Assembly: GCF_000027125.1 (NCBI RefSeq)
Contig: NC_017626.1
Strand: one strand, 5' to 3'
Length of the DNA stretch: 64,000 nucleotides
Origin: Escherichia coli 042
GTDB lineage: Bacteria; Pseudomonadota; Gammaproteobacteria; Enterobacterales; Enterobacteriaceae
Shown: positions 7,230-50,274 of the stretch, in pieces
How the letters are laid out: each line of letters starts with the position of its first letter
Numbering within the stretch: position 1 is the first letter of the stretch
Notes under the pieces: generated by a model
What the model was told of the DNA's origin: nothing
The model's input: the letters and a program-made list of their open reading frames with translations, nothing else
The model's database searches: none
Translations under genes and position numbers: made by a program

Positions 7230-7268
7230 CACGCTACCGCCCCTGGCTTAACAGCTACCAGTGCACTA
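7230..7268 (-). promoter_or_regulatory. JUMPstart element with ops (GGCGGTAGCGTG), RfaH-dependent antitermination site in the O-antigen operon leader
   Basis: Minus-strand sequence TAGTGCACTGGTAGCTGTTAAGCCAGGGGCGGTAGCGTG matches the 39-bp JUMPstart consensus and ends with the ops element. Confidence 0.85.
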
Positions 7269-12555: not shown

Positions 12556-12745
12556 GCCTGATGCGACGCTGGCGCGTCTTATCAGGCCTACAAGACCCGA
12601 GCACAGAACCGTAGGCCGGATAAGGCGTTCACGCCGCATCCGGCATTCAGTGCCTGATGCGACGCTGACGCGTCTTATCAGGCCTACAGGTCCCGAGCAC
12701 AGAACCGTAGGACGGATAAGGCGTTTTACGCCGCATCCGGCAACC
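12556..12745. repeat. REP/BIME cluster (several palindromic units) between wzxC and wcaK
   Basis: Repeated GCCTGATGCGACGCTGGCGCGTCTTATCAGGCCTAC and CCGGATAAGGCGT...CGCCGCATCCGGCA units in alternating orientation. Confidence 0.85.
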
Positions 12746-17069: not shown

Positions 17070-17170
17070 ATCGTTACCCTTTTTCAGGCAATAGTTGGCC
17101 CTGACCGAAACGGCCAATTTTGTTTTTGTCGTTATTTACCGGAGAATTAATCCGGTTGATTATTCAACTG

Positions 17171-31545: not shown

Positions 31546-31584
31546 CACGCTACCGCCCCTGGCTTTTTAGCTACCAATACACTG
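31546..31584 (-). promoter_or_regulatory. JUMPstart element with ops (GGCGGTAGCGTG) in the wza leader
   Basis: Minus-strand sequence CAGTGTATTGGTAGCTAAAAAGCCAGGGGCGGTAGCGTG; shares the ...AGCCAGGGGCGGTAGCGTG core with the element at 7230-7268. Confidence 0.85.
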
Positions 31585-46393: not shown

Positions 46394-47155
46394 TCATTCT
46401 GTCCACAGCGCCAGTGCCAACGTTTTATCATCATCGGTACGCTCGTTTACCGCCGGGCTGGACAAAAACTGCTTTAACAATTCAGGTAATAAATCGAGTT
46501 GTTCCTGCGTTGCTGACGCCAGCCCATTGAAAAACGGGGTAAAGAAAGGCACATGGGGAGAATTATCCAGCATATTTAACGCCAGCCGCTGGATACCATC
46601 CGTAAAAGCTGCAACTTTGTGCGCACGCTCAGTGCTGGTGAAAGTTTCCAGTCTGGAAACCGCATCTTCATCAGTAATGAAGTGTGTCATATTGGCATAT
46701 TCACCCACCATCGGCGTGAGCGGCAGTTGCAGACCGTGCCCCAAATCTACCACCACGCCGCCATCGCCAATCTGCATAATCAGGGTGCCATTAGCTGATG
46801 AAATCAATCCCATAAACGTGCAGGCAAAATCTCGAACAGCTAATTCTTTGGCTTCCGCCTCGGCAAAAAGTCGCTGACGAATAGTCAGCACAATATCCGT
46901 TGCGAGGACATCATTAAGCCCAAATTCCCCGCCCTGCACTTTTTGCATCATATAAGCCATCGCTTCATTGACGGCAAGCATCGCACCTTCGCCACCCTGC
47001 GAGACGCTACCTGCGCCATCGGCGACAAATAACGTCAATAATGGCTGCTGGTCATTTAGCCAGGCAACCTGCATCTGGCAGGCATCCTGGCAAGGCAAGT
47101 CCGCGCTGATGTGCGACGTTCCAACGGTTGATGCATAGACCAGACGCCAGCTCAC
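46394..47155 (-). CDS. yegK: PP2C-family Ser/Thr protein phosphatase YegK
   Basis: 253 aa; 4-nt overlap with yegL. Confidence 0.85.
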
Positions 47156-47811
47156 ACTGACGTCCAGCCTTTTGGCGCTTCCAGCACAACTTCCGTTCCC
47201 GGCGTGGAGCGGGAAACCGAACGCAGTGAACTGGATAACCAGCTAAACAGTTCACGGAATTGTAATCCCTGCAGTGGCAAAGGCTGACGAACGCTGATTT
47301 GTGCCAAAGTCTTCATATCCGCCCCCTGAACACCGATGGAAAAGAAGGCAAACTTCTTATCTTCTTCCCCCTGAAACACTTTGTTGGCGGCAGCCTGCCA
47401 CTCATCGGTTGGAGCGCCATCGGTGATCAGGAAAATCCACGGGCGATAATACGAAATACCATTTGCACGATACTCACGTTTGCGCTCCTCTACCATATCC
47501 AGGGCTTTGGTAATGGCAGCGCCCATTGGTGTATCGCCCTGGGCAAACAGGATGGGTGGGAAAAAATTAGCGGCGCTGGTAAAGGGTTGTTCCACATGCA
47601 CCGGGCCGAACGTCACAATGCCGAGTTCCACTCTTTTTAAGGCCAGCGGGTCGGCAAGCAGCTCATCGCGAAAGGTAACCAATCCGGCATTAAGTTCATT
47701 AATAGGTCTTCCGCTCATCGAGCCAGAAACATCCAGCAACAAAATGCAGGGGCAACGTGGTTCCGGGTTACTGGCAAAATCGCTGGTGGCAAACATGATT
47801 TGTTCGCTCAT
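47152..47811 (-). CDS. yegL: von Willebrand factor A domain protein YegL
   Basis: 219 aa; vWA MIDAS-like motif DVSGSMSG near the N-terminus. Confidence 0.85.
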
Positions 47812-47992
47812 AAGAAATCCTTTCTTAGAGAATTATTGAGGTCCGGTATCATACCGATTGCAATAATGAAATAAGAGCAAACGAAGAAACTTTCAGAATT
47901 AGGCCCGGCGGCGCAGAAAATTTTGCTATTCGCCTCGCAAGAACGAAGAGCCGTCGATTGACACTAAGGGCGGAGTGACATAATTTCAGGAG

Positions 47993-48134
47993 TGAGGGTT
48001 AGGGAGAGGTTTCCCCCTCCCCCTGGTGTTCTTAGTAAGCCTGGAAGCTAATCACTAAGAGTATCACCAGTATGATGACGTGCTTCATCATAACCCTTTC
48101 CTTATTAAAAGCCCTCTTCTCCGGGAGAGGGTTT
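47993..48134 (+). ncRNA. sibA: Sib antisense sRNA (type I antitoxin), unit 1 (SibA-like); coordinates approximate
   Basis: Sigma70-like promoter TTGACA (47958-47963), 17-nt spacer, TAATTT; fully antisense to ibs unit 1; ends at a stem-loop CCCTCT...AGAGGG followed by T residues. Confidence 0.7.
48032..48091 (-). CDS. ibsA: Ibs type I toxin peptide, 19 aa (MMKHVIILVILLVISFQAY)
   Basis: Manual translation of the minus strand; hydrophobic Ibs-family peptide encoded opposite the Sib RNA. Confidence 0.8.
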   Translation of the reverse strand: MMKHVIILVILLVISFQAY

Positions 48135-48327
48135 CCCGTTTCAGCGTCCCGCTGAAATCGTCGGCTTACCTCCTTTCGCCCTGAATGCAGTCTATCGCTA
48201 ACGCGTGAACAAAATAGTTTCCTCTGTGATTATTGCGTAACGACTCGCAAAGAATATTTGCTGGCAGGATCGCAGACTGCAAAGCCTGCAGATTGACAAT
48301 CTTATCGTGAAGGCATACTTTCAGGAG

Positions 48328-48465
48328 TGAGGGTAGAGCGGGGTTTCCCCCGCCCTGGTAGTCTTAGTATGCTGGGTAGCTAATCACTAAGAGCACCACG
48401 ATGATGAGTATCTTCATCATGACCCTTTCCTTATTTAAGGCCCCTTCCTCGGGAGGGGCTTTCCC
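48328..48465 (+). ncRNA. sibB: Sib antisense sRNA, unit 2 (SibB-like); coordinates approximate
   Basis: Promoter TTGACA (48293-48298), 17-nt spacer, TACTTT; terminator stem GCCCCT...AGGGGC plus T-run. Confidence 0.7.
48364..48420 (-). CDS. ibsB: Ibs type I toxin peptide, 18 aa (MMKILIIVVLLVISYPAY)
   Basis: Manual translation of the minus strand, antisense to Sib unit 2. Confidence 0.75.
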   Translation of the reverse strand: MMKILIIVVLLVISYPAY

Positions 48466-48655
48466 GTTTCAGCGTCCCGCTGAAATCGTCGGCTTACCTC
48501 CTTTCGCCCTGAATGCAGTCTATCGCTGACTTGCGGATAAAATAGTTTCCAGTGTGATTATTGCGTAACGTCTCGCAAAGAATATTTGCTGGCAGGATCG
48601 CAGACTGCAAAGCCTGCAGATTGACAATCTTATCGTGAAGGCATACTTTCAGGAG

Positions 48656-48793
48656 TGAGGGTAGAGCGGGGTTTCCCCCGCCCTGGTAGTCTTAGTAAGC
48701 TGGCCAGCTAATGACTAAGAGCACCACGATGATGAGTAGCTTCATCATGACCCTTTCCTTATTTATGGCCCCTTCCTCGGGAGGGGCTTTCCC
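48656..48793 (+). ncRNA. Sib antisense sRNA, unit 3 (additional SibB-like copy); coordinates approximate
   Basis: Near-identical to unit 2 with a 328-bp period; promoter and terminator are conserved. Confidence 0.65.
48692..48748 (-). CDS. Ibs type I toxin peptide, 18 aa (MMKLLIIVVLLVISWPAY)
   Basis: Manual translation; differs from the unit 2 peptide at two positions. Confidence 0.75.
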   Translation of the reverse strand: MMKLLIIVVLLVISWPAY

Positions 48794-48955
48794 GTTTCAG
48801 CGTCCCGCTGAAATCATCGGCTTACCTCCTTTCGCCATGCACGTAGTCTATCGCTAACGCGTAGATAAAATAGTTTCATGTGTTATTACTGGATGCGTGC
48901 TCGCAAATGTGCCCGTCATTCAGACGATTCCCGACAGTGTTTCATAATTCCTCCA

Positions 48956-48973
48956 TTTTTCTCCCTTATTGGC
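48956..48973 (+). promoter_or_regulatory. BaeR box in the mdtA promoter
   Basis: TTTTTCTCCCTTATTGGC matches the BaeR consensus TTTTTCTCCATDATTGGC at 17 of 18 positions, about 55 bp upstream of the mdtA start. Confidence 0.7.
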
Positions 48974-49026
48974 TGGCTACACTAGTATCATTCCGCGAAA
49001 CGTTTCAGGAAGAGAAACTCTTAACG

Positions 49027-50274
49027 ATGAAAGGCAGTTATAAATCCCGTTGGGTAATCGTAATCGTGGTGGTTATCGCCGCCATCGCCGCATTCTGGTT
49101 CTGGCAAGGCCGCAATGACTCCCAGAGTGCAGCCCCAGGGGCGACGAAACAAGCGCAGCAATCGCCAGCGGGTGGTCGCCGTGGTATGCGTTCCGGCCCA
49201 TTAGCCCCGGTTCAGGCGGCGACCGCCGTAGAACAGGCAGTTCCGCGTTACCTCACCGGGCTTGGCACCATTACCGCCGCTAATACTGTTACGGTGCGCA
49301 GCCGCGTGGACGGTCAACTGATGGCGTTACATTTCCAGGAAGGCCAGCAGGTCAAAGCAGGCGATTTACTGGCAGAAATTGACCCCAGCCAGTTCAAAGT
49401 TGCATTAGCACAAGCCCAGGGCCAACTGGCAAAAGATAAAGCCACGCTTGCTAACGCCCGCCGTGATCTGGCGCGTTATCAGCAACTGGCAAAAACCAAT
49501 CTCGTATCCCGTCAGGAGCTGGATGCCCAACAGGCGCTGGTCAGTGAAACCGAAGGCACCATTAAGGCTGATGAAGCAAGCGTCGCCAGCGCACAGCTGC
49601 AACTCGACTGGAGCCGCATCACCGCACCAGTCGATGGTCGCGTTGGTCTCAAGCAGGTTGATGTTGGTAACCAAATCTCCAGTGGTGATACCACCGGGAT
49701 TGTAGTGATCACCCAGACGCATCCTATCGATTTGCTCTTTACCCTGCCGGAAAGCGATATCACTACCGTAGTACAGGCGCAAAAAGCCGGAAAACCGCTG
49801 GTTGTTGAAGCCTGGGATCGCACCAACTCGAAGAAATTAAGTGAAGGCACGCTGTTAAGCCTCGATAACCAAATCGATGCCACTACCGGTACGATTAAAG
49901 TGAAAGCACGCTTTAATAATCAGGATGATGCGCTGTTTCCCAATCAGTTTGTTAACGCGCGTATGTTAGTCGACACCGAACAAAACGCCGTAGTGATCCC
50001 AACAGCCGCCCTGCAAATGGGCAATGAAGGCCATTTTGTCTGGGTGCTGAATAGCGAAAACAAGGTCAGCAAACATCTGGTGACGCCGGGCATTCAGGAC
50101 AGTCAGAAAGTGGTGATCCGCGCAGGTATTTCTGCGGGCGACCGCGTAGTGACGGACGGAATTGATCGCCTGACCGAAGGGGCGAAAGTGGAAGTGGTTG
50201 AAGCTCAAAGCGCCACCACTTCGGAAGAGAAAGCCACCAGCCGCGAATACGCGAAAAAAGGAGCACGCTCCTGA
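49027..50274 (+). CDS. mdtA: RND efflux membrane fusion protein MdtA
   Basis: Start trimmed to [14 protein letters not shown] (ATG at 49027), 415 aa. Confidence 0.9.

Follow-up and report, generated by a model that had tools for sequence, protein, structure and literature searches.

Three tandem Sib/Ibs units between yegL and mdtA in Escherichia coli: very probably sibA/ibsA and two SibB-type modules in a common arrangement

Published work has already described the Sib/Ibs module, its mechanism and strain-to-strain variation in the number of Ibs copies, and RefSeq routinely annotates the very peptides considered here. In SibC, recognition of the ibs mRNA involves two domains, TRD1 (+46 to +68) and TRD2 (+99 to +115), either of which is enough for repression on its own, and among the five Sib RNAs of K-12 variability is highest in the regions that contain the TRDs (Han et al. 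2010, PMC2943612). O157:H7 has 6–7 Ibs genes compared with five in K-12, and extra copies have been described in O157:H7, Shigella and E. fergusonii (Fozo 2010). An Ibs toxin of Salmonella is reported to inhibit the Fo sector, which brings down both ATP and membrane potential, and to need a basic residue at position 3 and Leu11 (bioRxiv preprint 2025, 10.1101/2025.05.26.656083). At the yegL–mdtA junction, MG1655 has just sibA/ibsA and sibB/ibsB, in agreement with the initial annotation of the present sequence.

The stretch analyzed here (the window; 64,000 nucleotides of E. coli 042, contig NC_017626.1) contains three tandem units of ∼328 bp between yegL and mdtA, all of them intact (47958–48813). 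Tandem Repeats Finder reports a single array at 47979–48888 with a period of 328, 2.8 copies, 89% matches and a score of 1441. Three full-length matches to the Rfam SIB_RNA family (RF00113) lie on the plus strand at 47958–48106, 48293–48435 and 48621–48763, coordinates that begin at the −35 box and are therefore offset from the true transcripts. Their scores of 149.5, 140.8 and 140.2 bits (E-values of 3e-31 to 7e-29) are far above the gathering score of 56, identifying all three as Sib antitoxin RNAs. Together with three ORFs on the opposite strand, these results bear out the initial description of three tandem type I units. The flanking ORFs and the annotation of matching genomes place the array at the sibA/sibB locus, and we conclude that this is very probably that locus in a common three-unit form, comprising sibA/ibsA and two SibB-type modules. 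The features are as follows.

47152–47811, minus strand: yegL, encoding a vWA-domain protein; left flank (ORF, and yegL annotation in matching genomes).
47958–47986, plus strand: Sib1 (SibA) promoter; −35 TTGACA at 47958–47963, 17-nt spacer, −10 TAATTT at 47981–47986; the predicted start, 7 nt downstream, falls at the curated MG1655 sibA 5′ end.
47994–48137, plus strand: Sib1, the SibA antitoxin RNA, 144 nt, with a terminator hairpin at 48110–48137; 1 mismatch to MG1655 sibA; Rfam 149.5 bits; predicted fold −58.5 kcal/mol, z −4.9.
48032–48091, minus strand: ibsA ORF, MMKHVIILVILLVISFQAY plus stop; ribosome-binding site at 48093–48103; same peptide as RefSeq IbsA WP_010723109.1 of K_EC180, a near-identical genome.
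48139–48157, 48467–48485 and 48795–48813, no strand assigned: conserved hairpin TTTCAGCG-TCC-CGCTGAAA, just past each Sib terminator.
48293–48321, plus strand: Sib2 promoter; −35 TTGACA at 48293–48298, −10 TACTTT at 48316–48321.
48329–48464, plus strand: Sib2 antitoxin RNA, 136 nt, SibB-type 'ILY' allele; ends by homology to curated MG1655 sibB; Rfam 140.8 bits; fold z −3.7.
48370–48392, 48420–48438 and 48439–48464, plus strand: TRD1 equivalent, TRD2 equivalent and terminator of Sib2 (TRDs by alignment with SibC).
48364–48420, minus strand: ibs ORF of unit 2, MMKILIIVVLLVISYPAY plus stop; ribosome-binding site at 48422–48432; identical to RefSeq WP_012767742.1, 'Ibs family toxin'.
48621–48649, plus strand: Sib3 promoter; −35 TTGACA at 48621–48626, −10 TACTTT at 48644–48649.
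48657–48792, plus strand: Sib3 antitoxin RNA, 136 nt, SibB-type 'LLW' allele; by homology to sibB; Rfam 140.2 bits.
48698–48720, 48748–48766 and 48767–48792, plus strand: TRD1 equivalent, TRD2 equivalent and terminator of Sib3 (TRDs by alignment with SibC).
48692–48748, minus strand: ibs ORF of unit 3, MMKLLIIVVLLVISWPAY plus stop; ribosome-binding site at 48750–48760; identical to RefSeq WP_100249772.1, 'Ibs family toxin'.
49027–50274, plus strand: mdtA, encoding an RND efflux membrane-fusion protein; right flank (ORF with an internal ATG at 49027, and annotation in matching genomes).

The 5′ and 3′ ends of the Sib genes align exactly with the MG1655 annotations of sibA (144 nt) and sibB (136 nt), and the promoters (TTGACA, 17 nt, TAATTT or TACTTT) lie 7 nt upstream of the positions matching the curated 5′ ends. 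GC-rich hairpins at the 3′ ends of all three RNAs are predicted terminators by homology to the curated K-12 transcripts, and the predicted folds are stable and conserved across the three (z −3.6 to −4.9). A generic promoter and terminator scan picked up none of these sites, since their −10 hexamers and T-runs depart from consensus, and the assignments therefore rest on homology to the K-12 transcripts. We do not take the scan as evidence that the signals are absent, because the curated transcript ends coincide with the predicted sites. For the ibs genes of the array, no convincing −35/−10 pair was found by eye or by analogy with the mapped ibsC start. The TTTCAGCG-TCC-CGCTGAAA hairpin falls in the presumed ibs 5′ leader/promoter region; it is specific to the yegL–mdtA array and is missing from the sibC locus.

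The three minus-strand peptides are exactly those read in the initial annotation. Each is hydrophobic and 18–19 aa long, starts with MMK, has an aromatic C-terminus, lies antisense to and wholly inside a Sib gene, and is preceded by its own ribosome-binding sequence, AAGGAAAGGGT. All three also have Lys3 and Leu11, the residues corresponding to those needed by the Salmonella toxin. The assignment of unit 1 to IbsA holds: the peptide is identical, and over 144 nt the Sib RNA has a single mismatch to K-12 SibA. By homology with the characterized K-12 system, each unit would produce a Sib RNA of ∼136–144 nt from its TTGACA-17-TAnTTT promoter, and this RNA would pair with the perfectly complementary mRNA for an 18–19-aa hydrophobic peptide encoded on the opposite strand, entirely within the Sib gene. 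Pairing is expected to begin at the two recognition domains, with TRD1 in the 3′ portion of the ORF and TRD2 across the ribosome-binding site and start codon, and would block translation and lead to mRNA decay. The predicted outcome is that a membrane-acting, ATP-depleting toxin is kept silent.

The initial annotation had described units 2 and 3 as nearly identical outside the peptide-coding core, a description that fits the 5′ flank and the portion of the unit close to the terminator. The 64 nt upstream of Sib are identical in the two units, as are the first 41 nt of Sib itself. The description does not extend to the 3′ part of the unit, where the two have diverged with ∼30 downstream differences and where unit 3 joins the unique DNA upstream of mdtA. 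Within the RNAs, Sib2 and Sib3 differ at 6 of 136 positions. Four of these six fall in the 23-nt equivalent of the SibC TRD1 (hypergeometric P = 0.008), confirming that the substitutions cluster in the antisense recognition region, and TRD2 is essentially identical between the two units. Sib3 differs from K-12 SibB by 4 nt, all within the TRD1 equivalent, with a single residue changed (F15W).

Computed duplex energies indicate how these differences could affect specificity. For TRD1, cognate duplexes are predicted at −41 to −43 kcal/mol, compared with −28.5 to −29.9 kcal/mol for the cross pairs between units 2 and 3. For TRD2, where cognate energies are −25 to −27 kcal/mol overall, the values for units 2 and 3 are −27.3/−27.4 kcal/mol for cognate and −27.1 kcal/mol for cross pairs. 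Sib2 and Sib3 should therefore be told apart by TRD1 and not by TRD2, so the cognate specificity proposed at the outset applies to the first domain and not to the second. Because the two units have TRD2 in common, mutual cross-repression between them is plausible to likely, judging from the pairing calculations.

The initial annotation had also regarded three units as one more than expected, a view that does not survive comparison with other E. coli genomes. Copy number at yegL–mdtA ranges from 1 to 4, with three units in an estimated ∼41–45%, two in ∼42% and four in ∼12% of 5,426 complete genomes, fractions that derive from identity bands and a 60-row sample of a collection skewed to clinical and laboratory isolates. 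In that sample, drawn evenly from the ranking, 24 rows have three units, ∼24–26 have two, 7 have four and 1–2 have one. The window array aligns collinearly at ≥95% identity with 2,461 of the 5,422 matching records, and its A-ILY-LLW haplotype is present at ≥99% identity in 52. We observed ten architectures: A; A-LLF; LLY-WIF; LLW-ILY; A-ILY-LLW; A-WIF-ILY; A-LLF-LLW; A-LLW-ILY′; A-ILY-WIF-LLY; and A-LLF-WIF-ILY. Exact matches to the 40-nt TRD1 blocks occur in 2,510 genomes for unit 2, 519 for unit 3 and 2,973 for K-12 SibB. The full Sib core of unit 2 is 100% identical to that of unit 2 in strain A_5 and is 2 nt from that of unit 3 in O157. The unit 3 core occupies array position 1, 2 or 3 in other strains. 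Downstream flanks cluster by array position and cores cluster by allele. The W-type TRD1, which is the unit 3 sequence, is also present in Escherichia sp. E1V33 and strain E69, and the WIF allele is present in E. whittamii; mdtA in these three is 92–94% identical to that of the window, and 93–94% in the lineages that carry the unit 3 sequence, compared with 97–98.5% among E. coli.

The finding of the same cores at different array positions, together with related cores in other Escherichia species, points to a reshuffling of old, widely shared cassette alleles, and we consider it highly likely that the array arose in this way. What distinguishes the alleles of this old pool is chiefly TRD1 and ibs codons 4–5, and the three-unit haplotype was probably put together through unequal crossing-over or gene conversion involving the nearly identical repeat flanks, a history read from mosaic patterns in ∼15 genomes. 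The initial annotation had instead proposed that sibB/ibsB was duplicated recently, within this strain's lineage, and that its pairing core then diversified rapidly. In favour of that proposal are the identity of units 2 and 3 over the upstream flank and the start of Sib, and the few, TRD1-clustered differences between the two RNAs, but these identical flanks cannot date a duplication because they are common to all SibB-type units in many strains. A recent origin is made very improbable by the persistence of both TRD1 blocks, unchanged, in the thousands and hundreds of genomes noted above, by the varied positions and combinations in which the cores occur (the unit 3 core is found beside the K-12 IbsB allele), and by the unit 3 block in other Escherichia lineages; convergence on shared cores is implausible for identical multi-site haplotypes. 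That the third unit could have arisen in assembly, through collapse or expansion of a repeat, is a natural concern for ∼328-bp tandem repeats with long identical stretches, which are prone to short-read misassembly. Its probability is nevertheless negligible, because units 2 and 3 are distinguishable both in the core and downstream, K_EC180, a complete genome obtained independently, is 99.7% identical over all 1,251 bp, and three collinear units occur in thousands of complete genomes. A further reading is that at least one unit has fallen silent and is decaying. K-12 cells deficient in SibA are viable, and expressing ibsA in a deletion background was reported to do no harm (Han et al. 2010, PMC2943612), which suggests that the units may be unequal in potency. 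We regard decay as unlikely, since in all three units the −35 is perfect, the spacing of −10 and start is the same, the ORF is intact and begins with ATGATG, and the ribosome-binding site and terminator are retained, as are the two residues linked to toxicity, and since the cores are unchanged across hundreds to thousands of genomes.

The shuffled-allele explanation can be refined, though not replaced, by a further reading in which RNA-level diversifying or balancing selection keeps old TRD1 alleles so that co-resident modules stay at least partly orthogonal. In a MAFFT alignment, 18 distinct SibB-type alleles, a small and non-independent sample, vary at Sib nt 42–57, 80–83 and 110 and are invariant at nt 24–41, 58–79 and 84–104. 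Relative to SibC, the inter-allele variation falls in the TRD1 equivalent and, at one position, the TRD2 equivalent. Third positions capable of synonymous change are polymorphic at 4 of 5 sites in ibs codons 12–17 but at 0 of 7 in codons 3 and 6–11 (Fisher P = 0.010), and the changes at residue 15 are conservative (F/Y/W). Selection would also account for the variability of the TRDs among the K-12 RNAs (Han et al. 2010, PMC2943612) and for TRD1 alleles common across species-level divergence, but the invariant stretches may reflect stronger structural constraint and the sharing between species could be due to introgression. Orthogonality is incomplete: in strain A_5 the Sib RNAs of two units are 1 nt apart, outside both TRDs, the same TRD1 block occurs more than once in ∼200 genomes, and units 2 and 3 have a TRD2 in common. 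A strict form of the selection reading is rejected on account of the A_5 pair and the genomes with repeated blocks, and the partial form is possible but doubtful. We offer as similarly tentative the broader proposal that yegL–mdtA is a cassette-shuffling locus whose cross-species TRD1 alleles are kept by diversifying or balancing selection, with synonymous and conservative codon changes that tune specificity and preserve the toxin and a shared TRD2 that provides back-up cross-protection. If it were true, the array would amount to an experiment run by nature, on the scale of populations, in how orthogonality of antisense RNAs evolves.

These results indicate that K-12 is not the norm at yegL–mdtA, where arrays of one to four units are composed from a handful of shuffled alleles across E. 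coli. Work on Sib/Ibs specificity, redundancy and phenotypes in K-12 may consequently not transfer directly to pathogenic and commensal strains. The combination of natural TRD1 variation with a shared TRD2 also provides a ready panel for asking how few nucleotides set antisense specificity.

The closest known system is the K-12 sibA/ibsA–sibB/ibsB pair (formerly QUAD1a/1b and ryeC/ryeD), which occupies the same chromosomal site and has the same unit anatomy as the window array, but with one unit fewer. K-12 SibB has the length, promoter, terminator and TRD2 of units 2 and 3, but its allele is LLF, whereas the window has ILY and LLW, neither of which is the K-12 allele. Unit 3 was considered as the orthologue of K-12 sibB, given its position adjacent to mdtA and its TRD2 and N-terminus, which are the same. 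This assignment was rejected because the LLF (IbsB) and LLW alleles coexist in one array in D7 and ZF34, and LLW comes first in ST1193; unit 3 is therefore not simply 'the' sibB orthologue. The arrays of O157:H7 (A-WIF-ILY), D7 and ZF34 (A-LLF-LLW), A_5 and O145 (four units) have the locus, repeat period and cassette pool of the window, and in three- and four-unit E. coli arrays RefSeq annotates the same proteins; they differ from the window array only in cassette order and combination. SibC/ibsC, the member dissected by experiment (Han et al. 2010, PMC2943612), resembles the window units in general architecture and in its predicted multi-stem fold, but lies at a different locus (fau–serA) with a different flanking repeat and encodes a peptide of 19 aa instead of 18. 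The K-12 paralogues differ from one another in both TRDs, whereas between units 2 and 3 the difference is confined to TRD1. A functional analogy can be drawn with the antisense RNAs of plasmid incompatibility, ColE1 RNAI/RNAII and R1 CopA/CopT, where a few loop nucleotides likewise determine specificity and minor changes give rise to new specificities (PMC3919570), although those RNAs control replication and Sib/Ibs are chromosomal toxin–antitoxin modules.

Between yegL and mdtA, Tandem Repeats Finder reports a single array at 47979-48888 (period 328, 2.8 copies, 89% matches, score 1441). An Rfam scan of the whole window places one full-length SIB_RNA match (RF00113, gathering score 56) in each of its three units. 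Because Rfam coordinates begin at the -35 box and end short of the terminator, they are offset from the real Sib transcripts, the ends of which we carried over from MG1655 by sequence identity. In all three units, AAGGAAAGGGT precedes a short ibs ORF on the strand opposite the Sib RNA.

Features of the yegL-mdtA interval
47152-47811, minus strand: yegL, left flank
47940-48930: yegL-mdtA intergenic region, E. coli chromosome
47958-48106: SIB_RNA match, unit 1, 149.5 bits
47994-48137: Sib1
48091..48032, opposite Sib: ibs ORF, unit 1, peptide MMKHVIILVILLVISFQAY
48293-48435: SIB_RNA match, unit 2, 140.8 bits
48329-48464: Sib2
48420..48364, opposite Sib: ibs ORF, unit 2, peptide MMKILIIVVLLVISYPAY
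48621-48763: SIB_RNA match, unit 3, 140.2 bits
48657-48792: Sib3
48748..48692, opposite Sib: ibs ORF, unit 3, peptide MMKLLIIVVLLVISWPAY
49027-50274, plus strand: mdtA, right flank

The three units described in the initial annotation are present, and its Ibs peptides, promoter motif and repeat length were all correct. Assignment of the array to the Sib/Ibs family is secure by every sequence-level criterion. A TTGACA-17 nt-TAATTT/TACTTT promoter precedes each predicted Sib start by 7 nt, and every Sib RNA has at its 3' end a GC-rich hairpin with TTTCC after it. These signals escaped a generic consensus scanner, since neither the -10 boxes nor the T-runs match the consensus, and the putative promoters and terminators therefore rest on homology to K-12. 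Sib1-3 are predicted to fold into a common multi-stem shape with the terminator hairpin at its end (-58.5 to -59.6 kcal/mol; z-scores -3.6 to -4.9; none of 200 shuffles folded equally well). A perfectly conserved hairpin, TTTCAGCG-TCC-CGCTGAAA, lies 1-2 nt past each Sib terminator (48139-48157, 48467-48485 and 48795-48813), in the presumed ibs leader/promoter region; it is confined to the yegL-mdtA array and is lacking at the sibC locus.

Elsewhere in the window, Rfam matches comprise full-length CyaR/RyeE sRNA (RF00112, 62112-62197, plus strand, 100.7 bits), which is expected downstream of this E. coli region; naRNA4, a REP-derived nucleoid-associated RNA (12614-12684, plus, 79.7 bits); and an "algC RNA" motif (17074-17123, minus, 78.2 bits). 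Two JUMPstart elements (RF01707), at 7230-7268 and 31546-31584 (both minus; 59 and 57 bits), lie in the window's first half and indicate two polysaccharide operons under RfaH control, probably those for O antigen and colanic acid.

The initial annotation expected two units here, as in K-12, and for K-12 this holds: the only features that the curated MG1655 record annotates between yegL and mdtA are sibA (144 nt), ibsA, sibB (136 nt) and ibsB. As an expectation for the species it does not. Of 5,426 complete E. coli genomes searched by megablast with 47800-49050, 5,419 contain the locus, and 2,461 matching records align collinearly in one piece at ≥95% identity, the three-unit arrangement; 52 align at ≥99%. 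Among 60 rows drawn at even steps through the ranking, 24 have three units (∼41%), 24-26 have two (∼42%) and one or two have a single unit (∼2-3%); seven (∼12%) were counted as four-unit arrays from their 89% coverage, and the one opened has four. Of the two-unit rows, 15 have ibsA and one other unit, nine lack ibsA and at most two are partial matches. The closest genome is that of the swine isolate K_EC180, with a match of 99.7%; it encodes the identical three RefSeq proteins. An assembly artefact is ruled out for the third unit, as the units are distinguishable and the arrangement recurs in thousands of independent complete assemblies. Three-unit arrays are common and annotated, and their like had already been reported: K-12 has five Ibs genes (Han et al., PMC2943612), and Fozo et al. 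2010 (PMC2887945) counted six in O157:H7 EDL933 and seven each in Sakai, Shigella boydii, S. sonnei and E. fergusonii, and considered lineage-specific duplications. Plasmid records hold 10 of the 20,671 Sib-like places in the E. coli genome search, so the units are occasionally plasmid-borne.

To locate the variation, we aligned the Sib RNAs of the window with K-12 SibA, SibB and SibC and marked the SibC target-recognition domains, TRD1 (+46 to +68, target within the ORF) and TRD2 (+99 to +115, target the translation initiation region) (Han et al., PMC2943612). Six positions distinguish Sib2 from Sib3: 42, 48, 49, 57, 83 and 110. Four of them fall inside the 23-nt equivalent of TRD1 (hypergeometric P=0.008), bearing out the earlier observation that changes concentrate where antisense RNA and toxin mRNA pair; one is at the final position of the TRD2 equivalent and another in ibs codon 4. 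TRD1 holds all four differences between Sib3 and K-12 SibB (P=0.0007). In an alignment of 18 distinct SibB-type alleles, taken from 14 genomes, the variable columns concentrate at nt 42-57, 80-83 and 110, and nt 24-41, 58-79 and 84-104 are invariant. The TRD1 changes are mostly synonymous third-position changes (Val12, Ile13, Pro16, Ala17) or aromatic exchanges (F/Y/W) at residue 15; of the third positions open to synonymous change, four of five vary in codons 12-17 and none of the seven in codons 3 and 6-11 (Fisher P=0.010).

This pattern had been attributed to recent duplication followed by diversification. We compared the upstream flank, Sib core and downstream flank separately for every unit in the window, MG1655, O157:H7 2159, A_5, EC958 (ST131) and K_EC180. 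The cores cluster by allele, and neither by strain nor by array position: the unit 2 core is identical to A_5 unit 2 and 2 nt away from O157 unit 3. Downstream flanks cluster by array position (last versus internal), and the 70-nt upstream flank is identical across nearly all SibB-type units in all strains compared. The unit 3 core (LLW) is last in D7 and ZF34, behind the K-12 IbsB allele, second in ST540 and first in ST1193, which lacks ibsA. Ten architectures were seen (A, sibA/ibsA unit; others, SibB-type alleles).

Array architectures
One unit: A
Two units: A-LLF (K-12), LLY-WIF, LLW-ILY
Three units: A-ILY-LLW (window), A-WIF-ILY (O157), A-LLF-LLW, A-LLW-ILY'
Four units: A-ILY-WIF-LLY, A-LLF-WIF-ILY

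With queries of 40 nt that have the variable block at their centre, and so force the 28-nt megablast seed over the variable positions, the unit 3 block is exact in 519 genomes (one mismatch in 436 more), the unit 2 block in 2,510 and the K-12 SibB block in 2,973. In B2-type EC958 and ST1193, neither of which has ibsA in this interval, the unit beside yegL is SibB-type with an upstream flank closer to that of the SibA unit (13 versus ∼30 differences), which suggests that this first unit is a recombinant.

When one genome of each species was scanned for the pattern, the A/B-type unit turned up ahead of mdtA in several Escherichia lineages and in Citrobacter, Salmonella diarizonae and Pseudocitrobacter. 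Most have a single unit (Citrobacter species, S. diarizonae, E. whittamii, Escherichia sp. MOD1-EC7003), and two are present in Pseudocitrobacter, Escherichia sp. E1V33 and strain E69; these counts indicate that the array grew from a single unit within Escherichia. The W-type TRD1 of unit 3 (AGCTGGCCAGCT) recurs in E1V33 and E69, and the WIF allele in E. whittamii. Because mdtA in these three genomes is only 92-94% identical to that of the window, versus 97-98.5% among E. coli, the cores must predate, or cross, species-level divergence. Their recurrence across strains, array positions and divergent lineages contradicts recent duplication and diversification in the lineage of the window. The data instead fit unequal recombination, which would reshuffle old cassette alleles between near-identical flanks. 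Strain E69 (CP089930.1) is labelled E. coli and bears a novel Ibs variant, MMKLVIIVVLLVISLPAY; its mdtA (94%) suggests that it is probably a cryptic Escherichia clade.

By homology, each Sib would repress its fully complementary ibs mRNA, with pairing beginning at TRD1 and TRD2 and then spreading, leading to mRNA decay. For SibC, one TRD alone is enough for repression, and a contiguous 22-25-bp helix sufficed to redirect it onto ibsD (Han et al., PMC2943612). Calculated TRD1 duplex energies are -41.1 to -43.1 kcal/mol for cognate pairs, versus -29.9 for Sib2/ibs3 and -28.5 for Sib3/ibs2; for TRD2 they are -27.3 and -27.4 (cognate) versus -27.1 for both non-cognate pairs. Sib2 and Sib3 also share a 26-nt identical stretch (nt 84-109) spanning the start codon and ribosome-binding site. 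From this stretch and the near-equal TRD2 energies we predict that units 2 and 3 are told apart by TRD1 only and could cross-repress through TRD2. The Sib RNAs of A_5 units 2 and 4 differ by 1 nt that lies outside both TRDs (position 83; Ile or Leu at ibs codon 4), so strict orthogonality within one array is not required. As for the toxin, a Salmonella Ibs peptide is reported to bind the Fo a and b subunits, reducing ATP and membrane potential, and to need a basic residue 3 and Leu11 (2025 preprint, 10.1101/2025.05.26.656083); Lys3 and Leu11 are kept in all three Ibs peptides of the window.

The observation itself is confirmed, and modules and copy-number variation of this kind were already known. 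The population-level pattern, in which variation is focused on TRD1 and TRD2 is shared, is mildly interesting and usable experimentally. TRD variability was already remarked by Han et al. for the five K-12 paralogues (PMC2943612); the TRD1-focused variation described here extends current understanding and does not overturn it.
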